Assembly: GCA_036252695.1 (NCBI GenBank)
Contig: GCA_036252695.1_4122.1
Length of the DNA: 64,000 nt
DNA from: a phage
Direction: 5' to 3' (one strand)
Notes under the pieces: model-generated
Databases searched by the model: none
Told to the model about the DNA's origin: nothing
Seen by the model: only the letters and a program-made list of their open reading frames with translations
Program-made: the position numbers and the translations under genes
Shown: one piece after another, positions 5,194 through 50,784 of the stretch
Layout of the letters: each line of letters starts with the position of its first letter
How positions within the stretch are numbered: the first letter of the stretch is position 1

Positions 5194-5772
5194 ATGAATG
5201 TATTAGAATTAAGTACTAAGCTGATTAGTATGCGTAATGAGTGGTACGATTGGTTTTATAATGGTACTGATATGGATTTTTCAAAATATCCATTTATGGA
5301 ATCAGGATGTGATGCAAGATACCGCTGGTTGAGCAAAGATTGTTCTGGTTTACATATTCTAGTTGACGATAGTGGTCAGGGAATTATAAAAGATTTACTT
5401 CAAGTTGAACAACTCGTCCATGATAATTGGTGTGATAACGATCCATACCTTGGAAATATGATTTATGTAAGTGAAGATGATTGCATATTCGTTATCCAGC
5501 GTCATGGTAATTCTATGTTTTATGTAGCAGATAGCAGTACTCCAGAAGGTGCAGCAGCCGATGGACTTATGCCTAAGATTGATATATTGGAATTTGGATT
5601 ACCTGAGCACTTCCAGATTAGTACTTTATACGATATTCCACCACTTGAGTTCTTTGAAGAATTTAAATTGTACTACAATGATCTTCAAAAATTGAGTACT
5701 GATCGACGCATTGAAATAACTGTTAAGTACATGGACGGAACGAAATTAACTGATACGGGGATAGAATTTTGA
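5194..5772 (+). CDS. hypothetical protein
   Basis: 192-aa ORF preceded by a GGA-rich RBS. Confidence 0.55.
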   Translation: MNVLELSTKLISMRNEWYDWFYNGTDMDFSKYPFMESGCDARYRWLSKDCSGLHILVDDSGQGIIKDLLQVEQLVHDNWCDNDPYLGNMIYVSEDDCIFVIQRHGNSMFYVADSSTPEGAAADGLMPKIDILEFGLPEHFQISTLYDIPPLEFFEEFKLYYNDLQKLSTDRRIEITVKYMDGTKLTDTGIEF

Positions 5773-6458
5773 TTAAAGATTTAGATAGAATTTTATATGT
5801 ACTAAGGGGTGTAATTACATTACATCCACAAATCAATCGAATTGAAAGTACATTTCAGTTGGAGTCAAGAGAAACTCCATATTCACATATATCAAATGTA
5901 GTTGGTTCACTCAGTACTGAAGACTCGTCTTACGATATTTGTGTATGTGAAGTACAACCAAGTTCGGATCTTGGATTTGCTATTTTTGATAAAGATCAAA
6001 ATCTCATTAGTATGTTTCAGTGCAATAATCCTTTTTGGAAAACATGCCTGTATCCAGAGTGGGCTATGCTTGATCCAACCAAGAGTACCATTAAAGTTTA
6101 TGACTCTAAAAATGATGAAGTCGTTATTGATTTGGATGAGTCAATGTCAGAGGAAGAACACTTTCAGCTAATGATGATGCGTGCTATGCCGGAATACAAT
6201 GCAATGATTAACACTGTGCAATACATTAAGGATACCATGCCAGCGTTGCGTACACATGAGTTTTGTCATCCGGTATTGTATGAACATCTAGATTTAGACT
6301 TCAGTACTATTAAATTTAAAGATAGTGTTAAAAAATATATTCAAGAGAATGTTAAATTTGATTTTATTAGTACTATGAACAATAATCCAAAAACTAATTT
6401 TAGGCATCAGTACAATGAATCTTTGTCTAATGGACGTGATACCAGTTGGTGGAAATAA
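5769..6458 (+). CDS. hypothetical protein
   Basis: 229-aa ORF with stop-start overlap. Confidence 0.55.
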   Translation: MIKDLDRILYVLRGVITLHPQINRIESTFQLESRETPYSHISNVVGSLSTEDSSYDICVCEVQPSSDLGFAIFDKDQNLISMFQCNNPFWKTCLYPEWAMLDPTKSTIKVYDSKNDEVVIDLDESMSEEEHFQLMMMRAMPEYNAMINTVQYIKDTMPALRTHEFCHPVLYEHLDLDFSTIKFKDSVKKYIQENVKFDFISTMNNNPKTNFRHQYNESLSNGRDTSWWK

Positions 6459-6459
6459 T

Positions 6460-6723
6460 ATGAATATTCAAGATAGATTACAATTACTGTACACACTTGA
6501 ACAGGCTGCTTATGATCTTGTTCGAAAAATCTCAGATGAACTACCTAAAGGAACTAAAGTTCGTGTACGTGAGATGAATTATTTTTCTGGAGTAATTGAA
6601 GAACAAGTACTAACAGTGAATAAAGTAACATACTATGAATCTGAGTTGTCTATTCAGTGTGAATCTGATGATGGATTAATATCATATTATGGAACTGATG
6701 TAGATATAGAGGTAATAAAATGA
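6460..6723 (+). CDS. hypothetical protein, small paralog family
   Basis: Internal ATG at 6460 just after the upstream stop; LPKGTKVRVREMNYF motif like other small paralogs. Confidence 0.45.
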   Translation: MNIQDRLQLLYTLEQAAYDLVRKISDELPKGTKVRVREMNYFSGVIEEQVLTVNKVTYYESELSIQCESDDGLISYYGTDVDIEVIK

Positions 6724-7862
6724 CCCTTTTGCAAATATATGAAGATTTAATGCACTTATGTAATACAAACGATGCATTCTTTTATGTGGATCATAAAAGT
6801 CCTGCTGGTGGCACGTATCGTGTATTCAGTTATCGTCTAGCATCATACACTGATTTCATGCAACCAAATGCGTTGGAAACCCGTGGCTCTATGTGGGAAA
6901 TTGATGAAGAAGGTGAAATGATACGTTGTGCAGCACGTACAATGAAAAAGTTCTTCAATGCTTACGAGAATCCTGCTACAATGTTCCCTGCTAACACCAC
7001 ATGCGATGACATTGCGGTAGTGATGCCTAAGTTGGATGGTTCGATTATCAGTACTTACCGTGATAATGATGGTGAGATTCGTTGTAAATCACATACTGCA
7101 TTGTATTCTGACCATGCGATTAACAGTACTCGACTTATTAACGAGAACCAGAATTTGTATCAGTACATCGACGAAGCGGAACGTTTAGGTTACACAGTTA
7201 ATATGGAGTATACAAGCCCAGAGTACCGAATTGTATTACCATATCAGGTAGAACAACTGTTTGTACTGAACGTTCGTCATCGTGTGAGTGGTGAGTTGCT
7301 ATGTGGTAAAGCACTACGTGATAAGTTTCCATGTCTTGCACAGTACAGTACTAATATGACTGGAAAAGATATTCATCACACTTTTCCGGTACGAAATACC
7401 TTCCGTGAAAGCGTGGAGGAAGTTCATAAAATGCTTGATATTGAGGGTTTTGTGTGCATCCTAAATAATGGGACAATGTGTAAAATAAAGACTGACTGGT
7501 ACAGTTCATTACATCTTACAAAAGATAGTATTATTATTGATTCTCATTTATATGAAGCAGTATTAAATGGTTCAAGTGATGATTTAAAACAATTGTTCAG
7601 TACTGATGAATATGCTATGCAAAAGATATTAAGAATGGAACAATTGGTATTTTCGTGCTATAATGCATTACAAGATGAAGTAGAAAGCTTCGTCAAGGAA
7701 CACAAGCACTTGGAGCGAAAGGAATTCGCAATGAAGGTTCAGGAGTGTTTAACTAATGAACTGAATCGTCAGGGCTTGGCCTTTGCAATGTATAACAATA
7801 AGAAAGTTGATTACAAAGAGACTCTTATAAAATACATGAAAATTGTACTAAAGGATTTTTAG
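6720..7862 (+). CDS. rnlA: RNA ligase 1 (T4 gp63-like)
   Basis: 380-aa protein colinear with T4 Rnl1 as recalled: FFYVDHKS..GGTYRVFSY, ETRGSMWEI and the nucleotidyl-lysine motif MPKLDGS. Confidence 0.8.
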   Translation: MTLLQIYEDLMHLCNTNDAFFYVDHKSPAGGTYRVFSYRLASYTDFMQPNALETRGSMWEIDEEGEMIRCAARTMKKFFNAYENPATMFPANTTCDDIAVVMPKLDGSIISTYRDNDGEIRCKSHTALYSDHAINSTRLINENQNLYQYIDEAERLGYTVNMEYTSPEYRIVLPYQVEQLFVLNVRHRVSGELLCGKALRDKFPCLAQYSTNMTGKDIHHTFPVRNTFRESVEEVHKMLDIEGFVCILNNGTMCKIKTDWYSSLHLTKDSIIIDSHLYEAVLNGSSDDLKQLFSTDEYAMQKILRMEQLVFSCYNALQDEVESFVKEHKHLERKEFAMKVQECLTNELNRQGLAFAMYNNKKVDYKETLIKYMKIVLKDF

Positions 7863-7892
7863 TACTATCTAGCCTAAGCACAAGGAGAAGTG

Positions 7893-8147
7893 ATGGCTAA
7901 ACCTAAGTATAAAAATGACGGTTCCCTTTCTCCGACTGAGTTCAGGAAAATACAAGAAGAAATCGATGAATTACAGCACAAACGCTCAATGAAAGGTGTG
8001 AAGATAAGTAAGAAACGAATCGAGAATACCTTCGGATGTAGTAGTACTGAATACAAGAAGAAAAGGAAACCAAAAGGTGTTAAGCCGAGAATACATGATG
8101 TAACTCGCTATACATCGAAACGTGAAAATAAATTTGACCCACTATAA
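7893..8147 (+). CDS. hypothetical basic protein
   Basis: ATG at 7893 after AAGGAG; Lys/Arg-rich 85-aa product. Confidence 0.5.
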   Translation: MAKPKYKNDGSLSPTEFRKIQEEIDELQHKRSMKGVKISKKRIENTFGCSSTEYKKKRKPKGVKPRIHDVTRYTSKRENKFDPL

Positions 8148-8156
8148 GGAGTTCAT

Positions 8157-8393
8157 ATGAAAGTTGAAGTTCAGCATAGTATTGTTCAGGATATGTCAGT
8201 AGTTAAATTTCTTTCCTTGAAAGATTATTTCAGATGTATCAAGTTCCTAGAAGAATCTCAATTACAGTGGACCCCATTAAAGTACAGTTCATCCAATGAT
8301 ACTGCTAGTATTCGTTGTGATGAATCTGTACTTGTGAAAATCTCCAAGCGATTTGGAGTTGGGAAATATAATGATAAACAATGCACAAAGTAA
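8157..8393 (+). CDS. hypothetical protein
   Basis: 78-aa ORF. Confidence 0.45.
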   Translation: MKVEVQHSIVQDMSVVKFLSLKDYFRCIKFLEESQLQWTPLKYSSSNDTASIRCDESVLVKISKRFGVGKYNDKQCTK

Positions 8394-8682
8394 TTTACTA
8401 TATATAAAGTCAGTAGAAGCTGAAATTAAAAATTCAGTACAAACTATCGTCGATGAAATGATTGACAAATACAAGAGCAATCTTATTGGGAAGAAAGTCA
8501 GATGTTGGGATTACACATTTAAACACTGGTACGATTCCGAGATTGTGAAAGTTGATGTGAATACTGATAGTAATGGTCTAATTAATGGTATTGCGTATAT
8601 TGGTGTTTTAATACGAAAGGGAACACCACAGGAATGGCTCACCTATCATAATATAGAGCATGTTAAATTTTTAGAGGATTAA
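8371..8682 (+). CDS. hypothetical protein, small paralog family
   Basis: ATG at 8371; LIGKKVRCWDY motif; overlaps the previous ORF, so one of the two starts is uncertain. Confidence 0.45.
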   Translation: MINNAQSNLLYIKSVEAEIKNSVQTIVDEMIDKYKSNLIGKKVRCWDYTFKHWYDSEIVKVDVNTDSNGLINGIAYIGVLIRKGTPQEWLTYHNIEHVKFLED

Positions 8683-8685
8683 AGG

Positions 8686-9618
8686 ATGCCAACTATCACA
8701 CTAACAGTTGGATTGCCTGGGTGTGGTAAAACTACATGGGCAGTGCAAGAGATTAAAAAAGCCAAATCCAAGACTATCAACATCAACCGTGATGATATTC
8801 GTGAATCTATGGCTGGGTCACATGATGCTTACAAATTCAACGATGCTAATGAGCAGTACGTAGATAATTTACAGTTCAGTGCAGCAAATTCAGCAGCAGA
8901 GAATGGTTGGAACATCATAGTATCCGATACAAACCTTAAACCACATTTCCGTAATCTCTGGAAAGTATGGGCTACAGATAATGGTTATGATTACAAAGAA
9001 AAGAACTTCTATGATGATTTTGTACCTAATGAAGACCGTGGTGCAGATGTTCATGAATTCTTTAAGATTAAAGAGTTCGTAAAACTTTGTAAGAAATATA
9101 ACCTCCAGCGTGAGCGTTCAGTACCAGATGATATCATTGACAAAATGGCAGATACGTACTATTATAGTAAAGCATTACACATTGGTTACTATGGTAATTC
9201 ACGCGAAGCTGCTATCATCGTTGATATCGATGGAACTCTTGCTCATAAATGGGGTCGTAATCCTTACGATGAAAGTACTGTTCTTCAGGATACACCTGAT
9301 GAAGAAGTTATTTTGTCTATTATCGCTGAAGCAGTTTTTCATAAACGCAAGATTATCGTCATGAGTGGGCGTACTGAAGGGTGTCGTGCGGATACCGAAC
9401 AGTGGCTTAAGAATTGGGGTGTTCCTTACGATGCATTGTTTATGCGAGATATCGATGATAAACGTCCTGATGATGTTGTAAAATTCGACCTGTACATGAA
9501 AAATGTGGTTGATCATTACGATGTTAAAAAGGTATATGATGACCGCGATCAAGTTGTATTCATGTGGCGTAAGCTACTTGGGTTGAAAGTTTTCCAAGTG
9601 GCTGAAGGAAATTTCTAA
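8686..9618 (+). CDS. pseT: polynucleotide 5'-kinase / 3'-phosphatase
   Basis: N-terminal Walker A (GLPGCGKTT) kinase module and C-terminal DxDGT (VDIDGTLA) HAD-type phosphatase module; colinear with T4 Pnk; GAGGA RBS. Confidence 0.85.
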   Translation: MPTITLTVGLPGCGKTTWAVQEIKKAKSKTININRDDIRESMAGSHDAYKFNDANEQYVDNLQFSAANSAAENGWNIIVSDTNLKPHFRNLWKVWATDNGYDYKEKNFYDDFVPNEDRGADVHEFFKIKEFVKLCKKYNLQRERSVPDDIIDKMADTYYYSKALHIGYYGNSREAAIIVDIDGTLAHKWGRNPYDESTVLQDTPDEEVILSIIAEAVFHKRKIIVMSGRTEGCRADTEQWLKNWGVPYDALFMRDIDDKRPDDVVKFDLYMKNVVDHYDVKKVYDDRDQVVFMWRKLLGLKVFQVAEGNF

Positions 9619-44028: not shown

Positions 44029-44595
44029 ATGGTTAAATCTTTGCTACCACCACCAAAACGTCATAAAATCAAAGAAATGAAAGAACAACGTACATTAAAG
44101 ATGTACAACAATTTAGTTCAGTTACTGTGTAAAAGTCCATCGCTCAAAGCAGAGTTTAAAACTGATGATGACCGCAAAGCACTAATTGAGATGAAGTATA
44201 TGCTCAGTAAAATGTCCTTTTACAAATTTGTAAAAGAATACACAACTGACCCATTTAGTCCTCGTTGGAGATCCAAACCAAGAGAGTATTTTTACGGTGG
44301 TTCATATACGGATCGCATTCAAGACACAGTGATGGGAGTTGAATTTGAAATCGATTATGAGCCGAATGGTGTGGAAAGCTGGCCGATTGAGAAACGTTTA
44401 CCAAGTGAAGAAGAAATTTATGTTTATGCAAGAAAACTTTCAAATTTCAGTTCAAGAATTACTCTAGGCAATTTAGATTCATTTATTATTTTCTATACAC
44501 GTGTTGGTGTAGATAAAATGGTAACTAAACTCAATGAACTTTCATTACAACAAAAACAGATTAATGCATACAAAGACATTACTGATTTATACTAA
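44029..44595 (+). CDS. hypothetical protein (triplicated family, copy 1)
   Basis: 188 aa; motif D.R..L...KY.LSK shared with the next two ORFs; GGAGG RBS. Confidence 0.55.
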   Translation: MVKSLLPPPKRHKIKEMKEQRTLKMYNNLVQLLCKSPSLKAEFKTDDDRKALIEMKYMLSKMSFYKFVKEYTTDPFSPRWRSKPREYFYGGSYTDRIQDTVMGVEFEIDYEPNGVESWPIEKRLPSEEEIYVYARKLSNFSSRITLGNLDSFIIFYTRVGVDKMVTKLNELSLQQKQINAYKDITDLY

Positions 44596-44601
44596 TGAGG
44601 A

Positions 44602-45123
44602 ATGGATATGTTTTTTGGATCAGTTGGAAAACAAAACAGTACTTTAATTTGGCATGAAATTATCTTTAAAATTATATCTAAAAGCTACTCACTAAAGGAT
44701 ATTATTACCACAGATAATGATAGACGTATCCTGTTAGATGCAAAATATAAATTGAGCAAACACCCTTTACTTTCTTTAATCATTGATTACGTTTGTGATT
44801 ATGAATCTAGTCGTTGGAAGTGGGAAGACGGCGGTTTATTTCGTGGAAAAACATTCTACGGTGCGGAACGATATGTTTTCAGTGATACATCAAATGGCGT
44901 TAAGTTTGTTATTAGAAACTTTAACTCCAAAGAAAATGATTATCTTGAAAGTGGAGTGAAAGTATATATCGATAATAATAGCAATGTACTAACATATGAC
45001 GAATCACTAATTATGTTACAAATAATGCGTGGTGTTGAAGGTGTAAGAAACAACCTTACTAAATTGAAAATCCAGCAAAATGATATACATAATAGACAGA
45101 AAATTAAGGGTTTATATAAATGA
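44602..45123 (+). CDS. hypothetical protein (triplicated family, copy 2)
   Basis: 173 aa paralog (TDNDRRILLDAKYKLSK). Confidence 0.55.
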   Translation: MDMFFGSVGKQNSTLIWHEIIFKIISKSYSLKDIITTDNDRRILLDAKYKLSKHPLLSLIIDYVCDYESSRWKWEDGGLFRGKTFYGAERYVFSDTSNGVKFVIRNFNSKENDYLESGVKVYIDNNSNVLTYDESLIMLQIMRGVEGVRNNLTKLKIQQNDIHNRQKIKGLYK

Positions 45124-45629
45124 TTTCATTTTTCAAAAAGAAACAAAAAGTTGATGAAACCGGATTAGAATCGTTTCTATGGACTCTTATCATCAAAAAA
45201 AGTCCATTGATAAAAGAATATGCTATCAATGATGCTAATAGAAAAACTATCATTGAATACAAATATGAATTATCTAAATGTGATCCAATTGTTTATCACT
45301 TTGCGAAGTACTGTTCAAAAAATTTATCGGATATCACAATCTACCACGAGTCAGTCCCAATGAGTTTTCCTTATGGTGATTGGGTAGATACTTTTGATAT
45401 TTTTGATGGGTCAAATGGTTTCAGTTTCTTTTACTCGTCAAATAAAGCAAGTGTTCGTATTAAAACAGACATAGGTTGGACAAAGCATAGCTCAAATAAA
45501 GAAGATTATAATTTATTAGCTGACGTATACCGAAGTGTGAAGAATTCAAAGGATATTGATGAAAGAATTAAAAAGCAAAATCGTATATCTTTATCACTTG
45601 AAACATACAAGTCAAAGTATGGTGGTTAA
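45120..45629 (+). CDS. hypothetical protein (triplicated family, copy 3)
   Basis: 169 aa paralog (NDANRKTIIEYKYELSK); ATGA overlap. Confidence 0.55.
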   Translation: MISFFKKKQKVDETGLESFLWTLIIKKSPLIKEYAINDANRKTIIEYKYELSKCDPIVYHFAKYCSKNLSDITIYHESVPMSFPYGDWVDTFDIFDGSNGFSFFYSSNKASVRIKTDIGWTKHSSNKEDYNLLADVYRSVKNSKDIDERIKKQNRISLSLETYKSKYGG

Positions 45630-45631
45630 CT

Positions 45632-46033
45632 ATGACTACAGTTGATGATATCTATAGCACTATACGCAATATGAGTACAGATAGAAAAGTATTTGGCGAT
45701 AAAGAAAAATCTAAGTGTTATGGTATTGATTCTTTTGATATAATTTCTTATGAGTACAATACAAGTGGAAATAGTTCACTGAATATCGTCTGTCCTCGTG
45801 ATCCAGAAAATAATTTTATGTATGTTGAAATTAATAATGATGGAATGTTTTTTACAAAAGTTTTCAAAGGTGGAATTAATTACGAACCTATTGAATGTAT
45901 GAATGAAGAAACTTTCTTTCAAGAAGATACAATTATCAATTTAGGTTTTAGTTTTGATGATTATAAAACATTAGAACATGACTTTAATCGTTATTATAAT
46001 GGTTTCTTAAAGGAGTTAACAATTTATCTATGA
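45632..46033 (+). CDS. hypothetical protein
   Basis: 133-aa ORF. Confidence 0.5.
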   Translation: MTTVDDIYSTIRNMSTDRKVFGDKEKSKCYGIDSFDIISYEYNTSGNSSLNIVCPRDPENNFMYVEINNDGMFFTKVFKGGINYEPIECMNEETFFQEDTIINLGFSFDDYKTLEHDFNRYYNGFLKELTIYL

Positions 46034-48306
46034 ATAACCAATATATTGAACAAACAATAGTGAAACACTTGGCTGGGTCACAAGCCTACGGAACCAGTAC
46101 ACCTGAAAGTGATACTGATTATCGTGGTATTTTTCTTGCTAATAAAGAATTTATTCTTACACCCTTCTATAAGGTCAAAGAGGTAGCTGATAAAAGCGAA
46201 GAAGATACTAAATTCTATGAGTTGAATCAGTATTTAAAATTATACACTGAAGCTAACCCTAATATTCTTGAATCACTTTGGGTTGAACCTGAACACATTG
46301 TTGAAAGTACTGAAATTTATGACTATCTTCGTTCATTTAACCAAAAACTTCTTAGTTCCAAGATTGCATTTTCATATACTGGTTATGCATATAATCAGAT
46401 TAAGCGTATGACAAATCATCACGGTTGGATGGATAAAGAGCATATTGCTGAACGTAAACTAAATGAAATTTTAGAAGAACATCCAGTCGATGAGGTTCTT
46501 GCGTGGATGTATGATTCATTTCCACAATATCTTGTTGAACGTTTAGATACATCGAACTTACATCCATTTAATGCTAAAAAGATTGATTTTGAAAAATATA
46601 TGCGTGATACGTCATTGCAGTTAGTTTCGAAAAATCCATTAAAGCAATATCATTTTGTAAGATTAGTGCATAACTACACTACTGATAAAATTCTAGATCG
46701 TGATTTCAATTTATTGAATTTTAATAATGGCTATGAACTAATTCATTACGGAGAAAACATTTTTGCGATTATTAAAAATCCGAATGAAAGTACTATCAAT
46801 GCTGATGGTTCACTACGTTACTTCAATAAAGAACGTACTTCGGAAGAATTAAAAGTTCGTCCTGAACTCATTGTAAAATTCAATGAAAAGGAATACAAAG
46901 AAAATAGTGAGAACCGTAAGAGTTATCACAAATGGAAGCAGAACCGTAATGCCAAACGTGCTATTCTTGAATCACACCACGGTTATGACTGTTATAGTTT
47001 TGATACTGAATTCTTAACTAAAGATGGTTGGAAGTTATTTGATGATATTACTGAAAACGATCTATTAGCTACTTTTGACAAAAATCACAAAGTTGAATAT
47101 CAGAAATACACTGAACGTTTTGATAATTTATATAATGGCAATCTATACCATTTCACTGGTCATCACCAAGATACTTTAGTGACTGCTAACCACCGAATGT
47201 ATGTTAAGGATTATGCACGAAATCAACAAAAAGATATGTCTGATTGGAAATTTGTAGAAGCAGCACAATTAAAAGAAACATATAAAATTTTGAATACAAT
47301 ATCCCCAATAACTAAAGAACACAAAGATAAAAAAAGTCCAATTGACTACATGGATATCAAAGTTTATCTTCAACTCATGGGATGGTTTATTTCAGATGGG
47401 TGCATAAATTTCAGGGATGGTAAAGTAAAATCTTTATATATTTCCCAGTCAAAAACTAGTCAAGGTATGCGTTGTGCTTTATCAAAATACAAAAAATCTG
47501 GTCAATTAATGTTTAATGAATACATTATAGAAAAGAAAGATTATCAAGCTAATGACGAATCAAGATATACATTCCCAAGTGAAGTAGCTGAAGCATTATA
47601 TAATGATTGTGGACATGGTTCATATAATAAACGAATTCCAAATTGGGTATTTGATTTAACAAAACGTAAAATGGATTTCCTTCTGAAAGGTTTGTTACAA
47701 GGGGATGGAACAAAACGAAATTTAGTTAATGACAATGATACATTTGTATATTATACTGCCAATTCATTATTAGCTGATGATGTTCAAAAACTAGCATTAC
47801 TATGTGGTTATGAAACATCAAAATGGGGACCATACACAAACGAAACCAATTTTGGTAGTGTTGATATATATCAAATTCATATCAATATGAAACCCAAAAC
47901 CGAAAAAATGAACATGAAACAAAATCTTGAAAAAATTCCAGTTACTAATTACAGAACTGTGTGTTTTTCTGTTCCCAACGGAACACTCATTACTCGTAGA
48001 AATGGAAAAACCGCATTACATGGAAATTGCAAACATGCTATGCATACAATCAGGCTGCTGAATACAGCCGAGGAAGCACTTGAAACTGGTATCATCCAAG
48101 TTCACCGACCGGATGCTGCTATGTTGATGGACATTCGTAACGGGAAGTGGTTGTATCAAGAAGTTATGGATTATTTCAACGAAAAGGTTGACTACATCCG
48201 AAATGTGGCGTATCATAAAACTCATCTACCGAAGCGACCGAACATAAAGTTGGCGACAAAGGTACTATTAGATATCCGTGAAATGCAATGGTACAGTAAA
48301 AAATAA
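46030..48306 (+). CDS. Pol-beta-superfamily nucleotidyltransferase interrupted by an intein-like insertion
   Basis: N-terminal LAGSQAYGTSTPESDTDYRG (GS...SDxD) nucleotidyltransferase motif; a central ~346 aa carries intein/homing-endonuclease hallmarks. Confidence 0.55.
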   Translation: MNNQYIEQTIVKHLAGSQAYGTSTPESDTDYRGIFLANKEFILTPFYKVKEVADKSEEDTKFYELNQYLKLYTEANPNILESLWVEPEHIVESTEIYDYLRSFNQKLLSSKIAFSYTGYAYNQIKRMTNHHGWMDKEHIAERKLNEILEEHPVDEVLAWMYDSFPQYLVERLDTSNLHPFNAKKIDFEKYMRDTSLQLVSKNPLKQYHFVRLVHNYTTDKILDRDFNLLNFNNGYELIHYGENIFAIIKNPNESTINADGSLRYFNKERTSEELKVRPELIVKFNEKEYKENSENRKSYHKWKQNRNAKRAILESHHGYDCYSFDTEFLTKDGWKLFDDITENDLLATFDKNHKVEYQKYTERFDNLYNGNLYHFTGHHQDTLVTANHRMYVKDYARNQQKDMSDWKFVEAAQLKETYKILNTISPITKEHKDKKSPIDYMDIKVYLQLMGWFISDGCINFRDGKVKSLYISQSKTSQGMRCALSKYKKSGQLMFNEYIIEKKDYQANDESRYTFPSEVAEALYNDCGHGSYNKRIPNWVFDLTKRKMDFLLKGLLQGDGTKRNLVNDNDTFVYYTANSLLADDVQKLALLCGYETSKWGPYTNETNFGSVDIYQIHINMKPKTEKMNMKQNLEKIPVTNYRTVCFSVPNGTLITRRNGKTALHGNCKHAMHTIRLLNTAEEALETGIIQVHRPDAAMLMDIRNGKWLYQEVMDYFNEKVDYIRNVAYHKTHLPKRPNIKLATKVLLDIREMQWYSKK
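46990..48027 (+). mobile_element. intein-like element with LAGLIDADG homing endonuclease
   Basis: Begins CYSFDTEFLTKDGW (block A-like), then TANH (block B-like), two LAGLIDADG-like motifs (LMGWFISDGC and LKGLLQGDGT), ends ..ALHGN followed by Cys. Confidence 0.45.
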
Positions 48307-48316
48307 GAGGATTGTT

Positions 48317-48736
48317 ATGCTAAACGAACAAATCAAAGACGCACTACGTGTACTGAATCTCGAAGTTAACCGCATCCAGAAAAGTACTGACCGTTATAAA
48401 GTAATGCATGAAATCAAACAAGAATTGGAATCTATTAATAAGGGAGAGTGGTGGTATCTTCAGCCCGAATATCAAACTCGTGAATTAAACGATGTTGAAA
48501 AAGAAATTGTCAAATTCATCACTACTCGTTATTGTGATACATCAGAGAATGATGTATCAGCGAACTTCAATCTTACTAAATTGGAAGTCGAAGAAAAATT
48601 CCATTTTGATTGGCTTGATTGGATTGAAATGGTAATGGAACTAGAAGAAAAATTCAATGTTGAAGTTGATGAAAAGTTCGAGAATAATGAAACTAAGCTG
48701 TATGAACTAGTAGAACATATTCAAAAAATGTTGTAA
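48317..48736 (+). CDS. hypothetical protein
   Basis: Internal ATG of track ORF 48278..48736 after AGAGGA; acidic product. Confidence 0.5.
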   Translation: MLNEQIKDALRVLNLEVNRIQKSTDRYKVMHEIKQELESINKGEWWYLQPEYQTRELNDVEKEIVKFITTRYCDTSENDVSANFNLTKLEVEEKFHFDWLDWIEMVMELEEKFNVEVDEKFENNETKLYELVEHIQKML

Positions 48737-48789
48737 AACTATACAATTGTATACTCTAAATAATATCATCAACTATAGGAGATATTATT

Positions 48790-49164
48790 ATGAGTATGTT
48801 AGAAATAATTGTTTCAAAAATTCTTATTCCATTTTGGAAACCAATTTCTTTTGTATTATTAATTGGCGGTTCAGCTTATGCTGGTTGGGAAGCTAATACT
48901 TATTACAGTGGATATCAACAAAGCATAGAGCAACAAATAGCTAAAAAAGTTGATACCGCCTTGGATAAAATGCAACAAGAAAATGCAAAAAATTACCTTG
49001 AAACTAAAAAAATCATGGAAGATAATGCTAAAGTTATTGAAACAAAGGTTCCTTTTATTGTAGAACGTGAAGTTTATAAGAATGTATGTTTAGATGAAGA
49101 TGGTGTAAAAGTACTAAATGAACTAAAACAAAATTCTCAAGCAGCGAGGAATAAATTCAAATGA
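48790..49164 (+). CDS. candidate i-spanin (inner-membrane spanin)
   Basis: 124 aa: N-terminal transmembrane helix then charged, probably coiled-coil domain; followed by an overlapping lipoprotein gene. Confidence 0.45.
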   Translation: MSMLEIIVSKILIPFWKPISFVLLIGGSAYAGWEANTYYSGYQQSIEQQIAKKVDTALDKMQQENAKNYLETKKIMEDNAKVIETKVPFIVEREVYKNVCLDEDGVKVLNELKQNSQAARNKFK

Positions 49165-49469
49165 AAAAATTATTAGTTCCAATGATTTCTTTTTTAATTA
49201 TAAGTGGGTGTGCCGAGCAAGTAAAACTACAATCCCCCGCACCAATTAAACAAGAAATTCTGTTAGAAAGATGTGATGATGATACACCTCTACCACAAAA
49301 AATTATGATTGACAAAAATGGTTTTAAAGGTTATGATGGTGCAGAAATTCTTAAAGTACTTACTCGTTGGGATGCAGTATACAATGAATGTGCTTTAAAA
49401 CATGACGCATTGATTAAAACTATTCGTGATTTACAAGGTAAAGATATTAAAATCAATATCAAGGAATAA
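49161..49469 (+). CDS. candidate o-spanin (outer-membrane lipoprotein)
   Basis: Signal sequence with lipobox IISGC; ATGA overlap with the upstream membrane protein. Confidence 0.45.
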   Translation: MKKLLVPMISFLIISGCAEQVKLQSPAPIKQEILLERCDDDTPLPQKIMIDKNGFKGYDGAEILKVLTRWDAVYNECALKHDALIKTIRDLQGKDIKINIKE

Positions 49470-49470
49470 A

Positions 49471-50082
49471 ATGAACAAATATCATGTTTACTATACGACT
49501 AAATTATCACTTCTTGAAGAATTAAATCAACGAAGTACTAAGATGAAACGCTACACTTTAAATGGAATTACTTTTAGGTATTTCCCACAAAAAGTTCTTA
49601 CATTTATTAAGAATCCAAAATGCGTGGCATGTGGGATTGAAGCCACTGAAGTACGCATTGAACGTTCATTTTGTTCTGATCCAGTATATGGTAAACCACA
49701 TTTAAATATATATGCTGTATGTGGTCTTTATGAAGTGTTGATGACAGTTGATCATAATCATCTGGCATCTAAGGGTGGACCTGATTTAGAGTCAAACTTT
49801 AATACTATGTGCTCCAGATGTAATCAACTACGTTCGAATAAAACTGAAACAGTTGATGAGTTTCTTGAGAAAGTTAAAGGTCGTAATCTTCTCCAAGAAC
49901 ATATGAATAATTTCTTTAATGTACAAAAAAAGAAAAATAACATTGACAAGTCGAAACTACTAGAAGAACGTAGGTTACGTCAAGAATTATGGGAAACTGA
50001 TCATCTATGGCATGTTCGAGAGTTTGGTCGTCATATGAAAGCTTTGAAAAAAGAACAAAAGAAATTGAATAAACATGATTGA
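49471..50082 (+). CDS. HNH endonuclease
   Basis: CVACG ... VDHNHLASKGG ... N ... CSRCN motif typical of HNH; ATG at 49471 after AAGGA. Confidence 0.6.
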   Translation: MNKYHVYYTTKLSLLEELNQRSTKMKRYTLNGITFRYFPQKVLTFIKNPKCVACGIEATEVRIERSFCSDPVYGKPHLNIYAVCGLYEVLMTVDHNHLASKGGPDLESNFNTMCSRCNQLRSNKTETVDEFLEKVKGRNLLQEHMNNFFNVQKKKNNIDKSKLLEERRLRQELWETDHLWHVREFGRHMKALKKEQKKLNKHD

Positions 50083-50095
50083 TATGATATTATAG

Positions 50096-50123
50096 GGACT
50101 TGAGTATTCAAGTCCTTTTTTTT
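50096..50123 (+). terminator. rho-independent terminator
   Basis: Perfect ggacttga-gtat-tcaagtcc hairpin followed by eight T. Confidence 0.6.
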
Positions 50124-50134
50124 GGAGAAAATAT

Positions 50135-50407
50135 ATGAAAACTAAATTATTTCCACAACAAATAATGATTGAACTGTGCGAACATCAGTCTGGTGAAGTT
50201 GTTACAATCAGTGGTGATACGTATTCCATCATTTTAAATGAACAACAATTTGATCATACAAATCATACGAATGAACTGTATAATCTTATGTTTATGGACG
50301 ATAAGAGTGAAAAATACTATCATTGTACATATGAACGATGTATAGATACAACACCATTTTGTAATGAAATGGTTGGTGTTAAATGTTATGAATGTGAAGT
50401 GTTATGA
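50135..50407 (+). CDS. Cys-rich hypothetical protein (tandem duplicate 1)
   Basis: 90 aa; MELCEH..VVTISG...YYHCTYER...PFC.EM.GVKCYE shared with the next ORF. Confidence 0.55.
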   Translation: MKTKLFPQQIMIELCEHQSGEVVTISGDTYSIILNEQQFDHTNHTNELYNLMFMDDKSEKYYHCTYERCIDTTPFCNEMVGVKCYECEVL

Positions 50408-50427
50408 AGTTTTTTAGGTAAAAATAT

Positions 50428-50784
50428 ATGAAAACAAAAATCTTTCTACCACAAACCATGATGGAACTGTGTGAACATGATGCAGGAGATGTTGTCACTA
50501 TTAGTGGTTCCTGGAATGAGAGTACTGAAGACTTTATGCCAGATGAGGTATATTCTGTTGTTTTAAATGAACAGTACAATACAAGCCGTTGGAATGAACA
50601 GTACAATCTAGTTTTTCTTGACAATAACAATGAAAAGTACTATCATTGTACGTATGAACGAGGTCTGACAGAACGTAACTACACAACTCCTTTCTGTGAT
50701 GAAATGGATGGTGTAAAGTGCTATGAAGTTTCTGTTCGTCAGGTTCCAGTTGTTACTTACAAAACCGAGTGGGATTATCTGTAA
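50428..50784 (+). CDS. Cys-rich hypothetical protein (tandem duplicate 2)
   Basis: 118 aa paralog of the previous ORF. Confidence 0.55.
   Translation: MKTKIFLPQTMMELCEHDAGDVVTISGSWNESTEDFMPDEVYSVVLNEQYNTSRWNEQYNLVFLDNNNEKYYHCTYERGLTERNYTTPFCDEMDGVKCYEVSVRQVPVVTYKTEWDYL

Follow-up and report, generated by a model that had tools for sequence, protein, structure and literature searches.

A predicted bifunctional LAGLIDADG intein in the nucleotidyltransferase gene of an Asteriusvirus coliphage

A stretch of phage DNA of 64,000 nucleotides (contig GCA_036252695.1_4122.1 of NCBI assembly GCA_036252695.1; its full length is referred to here as the window) carries a nucleotidyltransferase gene whose open reading frame (ORF) of 758 amino acids is interrupted, at positions 46990-48027, by an internal segment of 346 amino acids. 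This segment is very probably a bifunctional intein, composed of a HINT splicing domain and a LAGLIDADG homing endonuclease, for which both protein splicing and DNA cleavage are predicted from the sequence and from a structural model. The insertion itself, its fold, its conserved residues, its homology to the gp3 inteins of mycobacteriophages and the recombination patch that surrounds it were each established by sequence, model or comparison, as described below. The element belongs to a phage intein family that is already known, as is the site of insertion, and is here found in jumbo phages of E. coli: the genomes closest to the window, as determined by megablast against phage genomes, are those of Asteriusvirus (the 121Q/PBECO4 group, E. 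coli jumbo phages of ~350 kb). The GC content of the window is low, at about 30-38%, and nearly all of its ORFs are on the + strand.

The host protein is, by its sequence, an RlaP/PF10127 nucleotidyltransferase of the Pol-beta superfamily (phrog_388) and a predicted enzyme. An earlier note on this DNA had described a 758-aa ORF with a Pol-beta-type nucleotidyltransferase motif, and this is borne out by the G16-S17...D28-x-D30 signature at the N terminus and by a match of residues 13-131 to RlaP (PF10127) in Pfam (E 9e-15; 55.5 bits against a cut-off of 23). With the insert removed, the protein matches the phrog_388 "nucleotidyltransferase" from end to end and contiguously across the junction (E 5e-75); a sequence search of the PDB with the same intein-less protein gave no meaningful match to a solved structure. 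The annotated orthologues in phage vB_Ec-M-J (phage J; 412 aa) and phage 121Q (gp506, 410 aa) have no insert, and alignment with them opens one clean gap of 346 columns between ..HGYD and CKHAMH.. (D320/C667). This gap corresponds exactly to amino acids 321-666 and thereby to the coordinates that had been proposed for the insertion, and the extein length of about 412 aa that had been expected is precisely that of the J protein. The region is thus not a normal part of the protein, as both homologues lack it cleanly. The Cys residue that follows the insert is also retained in these two empty alleles. By megablast, 33 phage records match the gene: one (TH47) over the whole gene, eight in two pieces spanning about 1216-1239 bp, and the remaining 24 partially, over gene nt 1-963 only. 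Phage TH47, whose record is unannotated and marked "UNVERIFIED", is the sole carrier of the intein among these 33 records. Five NCBI assembly contigs, 275-350 kb in length, encode the same 758-aa protein without change; one of them, GCA_036254115.1, is 100% identical to the window across 8.3 kb.

All four of the intein splicing blocks A, B, F and G were located in the insert and aligned with 42 relatives (Table 1). The motifs that had been picked out by the earlier note, namely a C-x-x-x-D-T block, a T-x-x-H block, two LAGLIDADG-like motifs and an ..HGN ending followed by Cys, are present as CYSFDTEFLT, T65-A-N-H68, LMGWFISDGC and LLKGLLQGDGT, and ..ALHGN. The insert combines a precise in-frame insertion, Cys1 with a T-x-x-H block, a terminal Asn followed by Cys+1 and a HINT fold, as required of a class 1 intein; at block G:6 it has Gly345 instead of the penultimate His, a residue that is common and not obligatory in class 1 inteins. 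The endonuclease has the organization of a monomeric two-motif LAGLIDADG enzyme, with two helices that each end in an acidic residue (D136 and D239) and paired alpha-beta-beta-alpha-beta-beta-alpha subdomains. Base composition gives no signal, with GC contents of 30.2% in the intein and 32.4% in the N-extein. Searches of all six frames of the window by tblastn and with a hidden Markov model of the 42 relatives detected no further copy of the intein beyond 46990-48027.

Table 1. Coordinates of the intein, its host gene and the surrounding recombination patch in the window.
Feature	Position	Strand	Description	Basis
Nucleotidyltransferase ORF	46030-48306	+	758 aa	ORF list
N-extein	46030..46989	+	aa 1-320; ends ..HGYD	ORF list, PF10127 match, intein-less orthologues
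Intein	46990..48027	+	346 aa (ORF aa 321-666); HINT splicing domain interrupted by LAGLIDADG endonuclease	indel, fold, homology
Block A	46990..47019	+	C1-Y-S-F-D-T-E-F-L-T; Cys1 (46990-46992) predicted N-terminal nucleophile	42-relative alignment
Block B	47182..47199	+	T65-A-N-H68-R-M70 (TxxH; Met at B:12)	42-relative alignment
LAGLIDADG motif 1	47365..47403	+	Y126-LQLMGWFISD136-GC; predicted catalytic Asp136	conservation, model helix, I-DmoI/PI-PkoII matches
LAGLIDADG motif 2	47674..47712	+	D229-FLLKGLLQGD239-GT; predicted catalytic Asp239	conservation, Pfam
Blocks F and G	47938..48027	+	..RTVC325FSVPNGTLITRRNGKTALH344-G345-N346; Cys at F:4, Gly penultimate, Asn terminal	alignment, profile
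C-extein	48028..48306	+	aa 667-758 and stop; opens with Cys+1 in conserved CKHAMHTIRLL	orthologues, phrog_388
Recombination (co-conversion) patch	46798..~48355		~1.56 kb: 1038-bp intein, 192 bp upstream and ~330 bp downstream	mismatch maps, 100-nt sliding identities

A database search with the 346-aa intein returned 50 proteins. About 20 of these are metagenomic and represent same-site insertions in related nucleotidyltransferases, with junctions of the form ..G-[YF]-D/C-Y-x-x-D-T-E-F-L-T ... V-C-F-x-V-P-N-x-T-L-I-T-R-R-N-G-K-x-x-x-[HQ]-G-N/[CST]-K-x-A-x-H (slashes mark the extein-intein boundaries); the more distant matches are inserted in ThyX, DNA methyltransferases, an RNA polymerase subunit and PolA. 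Conservation was counted in an alignment of 42 intein relatives, which reside in many unrelated host proteins. The window intein has the consensus residue at every invariant or near-invariant position, N338 and G339 included. In block A, C1, T6, L9 and T10 are each found in 41/42 relatives and E7 in 38/42; in block B, H68 is invariant (42/42), position 65 is Thr or Ser in 41/42 and M70 occurs in 32/42, being otherwise another hydrophobic residue or, in one sequence, Cys. Within the endonuclease, position 136 is Asp or Glu in all 42 relatives, G137 is likewise invariant and D239 is found in 41. Toward the C terminus, R336 is invariant (42/42), C325 is present in 38 sequences, the penultimate G345 in 41 and the terminal N346 in 39, the other three having Gln. 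Position 344 (G:5) is His or Gln in the same-site clade, and a block-F His is found at position 331 in 17/42 relatives, where the window intein has Gly. At +1, all 42 intein-bearing relatives have Cys, Ser or Thr; this confinement to the three possible nucleophiles is as selection for splicing predicts.

These counts bear on the suggestion that the insert is a non-splicing, in-frame homing-endonuclease fusion that remains part of the finished protein. Pfam recognises the LAGLIDADG motifs alone within the insert (LAGLIDADG_3 at ORF aa 551-601, corresponding to intein aa 231-281, E 6e-5), as such a fusion would lead one to expect. However, the endonuclease is embedded in a complete HINT domain that has all four splicing blocks, and the retention of a terminal Asn and of a +1 Cys, Ser or Thr among 42 relatives in so many unrelated hosts would have no rationale without splicing. 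Together with the structural model described below, which resembles whole inteins and not just free endonucleases, this makes a fusion extremely improbable.

An AlphaFold2 model of the intein, built from the 42-relative alignment, had a predicted local distance difference test score (pLDDT) of 94.2 and a predicted template modelling score (pTM) of 0.93, and places a helix at LAGLIDADG motif 1. The best Foldseek matches of this model in the PDB are whole inteins, namely TliVMA (7qsu, E 6e-16), PI-SceI, PhoVMA, PI-PfuI and PI-PkoII; I-DmoI and I-SceI match its middle domain, and mini-inteins, Hedgehog autoprocessing domains and BIL domains match its HINT part. PI-SceI, TliVMA, PI-PfuI and PI-PkoII share with the window intein the combination of a HINT domain with a double LAGLIDADG endonuclease (Foldseek probability 1.00, E 6e-16 to 2e-10), but their identity to it is only 10-12%, their penultimate residue is His and their F:4 residue Asp, and they are longer (361-537 aa; window intein, 346 aa), with extra DNA-recognition regions. 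A family profile compared with the PDB inteins matched PI-PkoII at E 5e-22 and aligned "rVvCftVpn" with "YVYDLSVED" of PI-PkoII and "VYDITTETHNF" of TliVMA, which places Cys325 opposite the F:4 Asp of these inteins and thus at position 4 of block F. Most class 1 inteins have Asp at this position. The matches to known inteins by tblastn (E 3e-49), family profile (E 5e-22) and Foldseek (E 6e-16) all lie well outside what chance would give.

The earlier note had left the choice between an atypical or degenerate intein and an endonuclease fusion. The identification as an intein stands; decay and fusion do not, given the penultimate Gly in 41/42 relatives, the same ..HGN ending in the gp3 intein of mycobacteriophage Cali and the HINT fold. 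"Degenerate intein" was accordingly rejected on family conservation and fold, and "endonuclease fusion" on conservation and the whole-intein fold.

Inteins in phage nucleotidyltransferases had also been thought to be rarely reported, which turned out not to be so. Twenty-three "NT" inteins of cluster C1 mycobacteriophages have been tabulated (Kelley 2016, Table 1, PMC5050341), and the nucleotidyltransferase family IPR018775 is among the intein-invaded proteins of a more recent survey, in which near-identical inteins in divergent exteins are attributed to local transfer (Gosselin 2025, bioRxiv 10.1101/2025.01.02.630785); the window intein is homologous to these inteins and occupies the insertion site that they do. 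When the window intein was compared with phage genomes by tblastn, 250 records were matched, and after TH47 the best of them were the gp3 genes of cluster C1 mycobacteriophages (Bixzunavirus), with 100% coverage, 32-33% identity and E ~1e-49. The match in Cali, at 1035-2033, has the intein coordinates listed for Cali gp3 in Table S2 of Kelley 2016, where it is classed as "NT". The Cali and window inteins are colinear over their full length (32.6% identity, E 3e-49), both contain a LAGLIDADG endonuclease, and both are inserted at the same point of an extein that matches PF10127. The junctions of Cali gp3 read ..AYGWD/CYLDDTEFLT ... VCFTVPNETLVTRRNGKVAMHGN/TKTGYHALRL, with the same ..HGN ending (..AMHGN/T), so that the two share the pattern ..G-[YW]-D/C-Y-x-x-D-T-E-F-L-T ... 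V-C-F-[ST]-V-P-N-x-T-L-[IV]-T-R-R-N-G-K-x-A-x-H-G-N/[CT]-K-x-x-x-H-x-[IL]-R-L. Their lengths are similar (346 aa in the window, ~333 aa in Cali). They differ in the +1 residue (Cys in the window, Thr in Cali) and in their carriers, the one being a jumbo phage of Gram-negative E. coli (~350 kb, 30-36% GC) and the other an actinobacteriophage. On this sequence evidence the window intein groups with the gp3 "NT" inteins of mycobacteriophages as a same-site allele.

A further difference lies in the extein. The Asteriusvirus nucleotidyltransferase has an extra middle segment of ~170 aa (window 46426-46930, aa about 133-300) that is absent from Cali gp3; it is also missing in several metagenomic homologues with a same-site intein, and one metagenomic protein (P0011) has part of it. 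The mycobacteriophage gp3 proteins (e.g., those of Colt, Bonray and DirtMonster) are labelled "HNH endonuclease", "LAGLIDADG endonuclease" or "nucleotidyltransferase with HNH endonuclease"; the intein goes unmentioned in these labels, and the endonuclease is of the LAGLIDADG type.

Beyond the mycobacteriophage gp3 inteins, the next-best full-length relatives are found in unannotated records of Prevotella Lak megaphages (e.g., MK250020.1 542468-543535), at 27-29% identity and E values down to 3e-30. Distant family members occur in phage genes for nicotinamide phosphoribosyltransferase, PhoH, terminase and ribonucleotide reductase, as well as in methylase, primase/helicase and Ser/Thr phosphatase genes. 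A scan of IMG/VR viral contigs with the intein yielded no confirmed relative. Megablast of 46600-48400 against RefSeq complete E. coli genomes gave no match, indicating that the intein is not a resident prophage element there.

An unusual feature of the window intein is its C-terminal active site, in which the penultimate His is missing and the block-F His present in some relatives is replaced as well (G331). Both of these substitutions weigh against the prediction that the intein splices, and they lend themselves to a second explanation: that the element is an intein by descent which has lost splicing, leaving the nucleotidyltransferase locked in its 758-aa precursor and the gene effectively inactive, as might be tolerated in an accessory gene. 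No published splicing assay was found for the nucleotidyltransferase insertion-site group, and the invasion appears recent (99.7% nt identity to TH47), which would have allowed little time for selection on this copy. On the other side, the penultimate Gly is the family consensus, all other catalytic positions are intact, and the identical 758-aa protein has been kept intact in five separate assemblies. Inteins without a penultimate His are known to splice (PMC5050341, PMC7664689), and in class 1 inteins of mycobacteriophages Gly, Lys or Ser often stands in its place (Kelley 2016, PMC5050341). The intein in the phosphoesterase/recombination directionality factor (RDF) of phage Bethlehem, whose penultimate residue is likewise Gly, undergoes complete splicing in E. 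coli and is strongly slowed when this Gly is changed to His (PMC5050341). This intein aligns with the window intein from end to end (E 9e-15) and has Cys1, a TANH block B, a Cys at F:4 (VWCLRVPNG), a LAGLIDADG endonuclease and an ending, ..TGN/S, that shares ..GN with it; its splicing indicates that the residue set Cys1/TANH/F:4 Cys/..GN supports efficient splicing. It differs in its metallophosphoesterase extein, in its low identity (22%) and in having Thr at G:5, where the window has His. The AceL NrdHF intein, without either of the assisting histidines, still splices within minutes (PMC7891396). A splicing-defective intein therefore seems very unlikely, and, judging from the alignment, the block-F Cys and the ..HGN ending characterise this phage intein family and are not signs of decay.

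The block-F Cys, together with similarity to AceL NrdHF, raised the question of membership in class 3, whose WCT signature consists of Trp at B:12, Cys at F:4 and Thr at G:5. The window intein has the Cys (C325), but Met70 in place of the Trp and His344 in place of the Thr, and its Cys1 is present and conserved; class 3 was therefore ruled out, and the element is filed, from its sequence, as a class 1 intein with a non-canonical but family-typical active site. Phage class 3 inteins are found almost entirely in Cas4 and terminase and not in nucleotidyltransferases (Gosselin 2025, bioRxiv 10.1101/2025.01.02.630785). Among solved HINT domains, the nearest in sequence is AceL NrdHF (6zgq), a class 3 split intein (26% identity; root-mean-square deviation of 2.2 A over 96 columns), with H68, M70 and C124 at equivalent positions, a Cys at F:4 and neither a block-F nor a penultimate His. 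It differs in being split, in having Ala1 and a G:5 Thr, in lacking an endonuclease and in following a demonstrated class 3 route, whereas the window intein is contiguous and has Cys1.

A more limited departure from the class 1 route can be imagined, in which splicing proceeds with Cys325 as a relay nucleophile, through a branched intermediate at block F like that of class 3, or in which Cys325 forms a disulfide with Cys1 or Cys+1 and makes splicing conditional on redox state. A Cys at F:4 in 38/42 relatives, aligned with the class 1 F:4 Asp, and the resemblance to AceL NrdHF are consistent with such a role, as are the disulfide-bonded precursor conformers reported for a mutant of the related RDF intein (PMC5050341). 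However, the presence of Cys1 in 41/42 relatives argues for its use, two of the three WCT positions are unmatched (Met at B:12; His or Gln at G:5), Cys is the second commonest residue at F:4 across inteins anyway (Mills, Johnson & Perler 2014, PMC4031507), and the surveyed phage class 3 inteins are nearly all in Cas4 and terminase. Such a route is judged distinctly unlikely for the window intein. For the lineage that combines Cys1, an F:4 Cys and a penultimate Gly, here with the block-F His also missing, there is likewise a slim chance that the block-F Cys serves as a class-3-like second branch point or as a redox switch. If so, a block-F branch point would bridge the chemistries of class 1 and class 3, and a redox switch would place a condition on how the phage nucleotidyltransferase matures in the course of infection.

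Comparison of the window with 121Q, TH47 and J revealed a mosaic centred on the intein. The upstream region 44556-46030 together with gene nt 1-412 is 97-100% identical to 121Q per 100 nt, against 71-97% to TH47; gene nt 1-412 is in fact identical to 121Q, and nt 413-768 is 121Q-like without being identical. From gene nt 769 (window 46798) there are zero differences from TH47 until well within the intein, and the patch as a whole is 98-100% identical to TH47 per 100 nt, lying within 121Q-like backbone on both sides. Past ~48355 the sliding identities to TH47 and J fall to ~80%, and 48374-50146 is 98.9% identical to 121Q. By segment, the window and TH47 share 99.7% nt identity in the intein (3/1038 nt differ) and 97.8% in the C-extein (6/279 nt), as against 84% in the N-extein (152/960 nt). 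These identities indicate that the window genome is a 121Q-type backbone with a patch of ~1.56 kb from a donor of the TH47/J type; the donor-type empty site, as found in phage J, is identical to the flanks of the intein in the window. A patch centred on the intein is the pattern expected of double-strand-break repair initiated by the endonuclease with co-conversion of the flanks, the cleavage itself being predicted from sequence. Together with the sporadic occurrence of the intein (1 of 33 records), the patch is indirect evidence of homing, and the spread of the intein between phages appears to be recent.

On its downstream side the patch ends at a junction (window about 48310-48375) where the related genomes also differ in gene content. 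Between the nucleotidyltransferase and acyl-carrier-like genes, 121Q has ~3.6 kb encoding gp507-509, annotated as tail fibre (5311-8729 of the 121Q sequence compared), and this block is absent in the window, J and TH47.

The TH47-like patch might alternatively be the product of ordinary homologous recombination in a co-infection by Asteriusvirus phages, with an endonuclease that is perhaps inactive. The region is mosaic among these jumbo phages, as seen in the 3.6-kb tail-fibre block found in 121Q only and in an extra paralogue copy found in the window lineage only. Yet the patch is short and brackets the intein, with 121Q-like backbone resuming on both sides, and both catalytic Asp residues and the motif glycines of the endonuclease are intact, so that this origin is considered unlikely, though less so than the alternatives concerning splicing.

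Under the preferred interpretation, that of a bifunctional class 1 intein, the 758-aa precursor would be translated from the gene and the HINT domain would excise itself by the standard class 1 route. An N-S acyl shift at Cys1, assisted by T65 and H68, would be followed by attack of Cys+1 (transesterification) to give a branched intermediate, and cyclisation of Asn346, perhaps with the aid of His344 in place of the absent penultimate His, would release the 346-aa intein. The product would be a ligated nucleotidyltransferase of 412 aa with the junction ..HGYD-CKHAMH... The freed endonuclease, with D136 and D239 as its predicted catalytic residues, would then, in co-infected cells, cut alleles without the intein at GGTTATGAC/TGCAAACAT, and repair of the cut would copy in the intein along with flanking extein sequence. 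Several points besides the two missing histidines weigh against this scheme. Neither for this intein nor for any other at the nucleotidyltransferase site was a published experiment found, the assays of Kelley 2016 being confined to terminase and RDF inteins. The 3 nt by which the window and TH47 intein copies differ are too few to reveal selection on the window copy. Around the insertion point, 7/48 positions differ between the 121Q-type target and the donor-type site, and cleavage of the 121Q-type target is an assumption; the patch could in principle stem from ordinary recombination, as noted above.

The genes next to the intein-bearing gene include two groups of paralogous ORFs and a second nuclease. 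Directly upstream, at 44029-45629, are three tandem paralogous ORFs of 188, 173 and 169 aa, the first two of which are 29% identical (E 4e-14), the third being more weakly related; none has a Pfam match, and the first belongs to phrog_18641, whose function is not known. The ORF at 48278-48736 overlaps the 3' end of the nucleotidyltransferase gene; it has a weak match to PP-binding_2 (E 0.0016, below the cut-off) and is called "acyl carrier protein" in related phages. It is followed by Rz-like spanin ORFs at 48790-49469 and by a free-standing HNH endonuclease ORF at 49426-50082, 1.4 kb downstream of the intein gene (Pfam HNH, E 1e-5; phrog_23285, E 6e-130). The HNH ORF is kept in 121Q (gp513) and J, and represents a second, independent homing-type nuclease nearby. 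Further downstream, 50135-50407 and 50428-50784 are adjacent paralogous ORFs of 90 and 118 aa (54% identity, E 2e-35) with a Cys-rich C-terminal motif, assigned to phrog_6343, whose function is not known. The 90-aa copy (about 50153-50409) is absent in J, in TH47 and in three of the four near-identical contigs with the same intein allele, and its absence from these contigs points to a very recent duplication or deletion polymorphism.

No published mention of an intein in Asteriusvirus was found. Recognition of the element is of value for annotation, since TH47 has an unannotated record and the labels given to the mycobacteriophage gene vary. With culturable phages that do or do not carry the intein, E. 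coli offers a setting in which splicing and homing could be studied, along with the parts played by the penultimate Gly and by the Cys of block F. The bounded, probable co-conversion patch documents a recent transfer of the intein between divergent coliphages.

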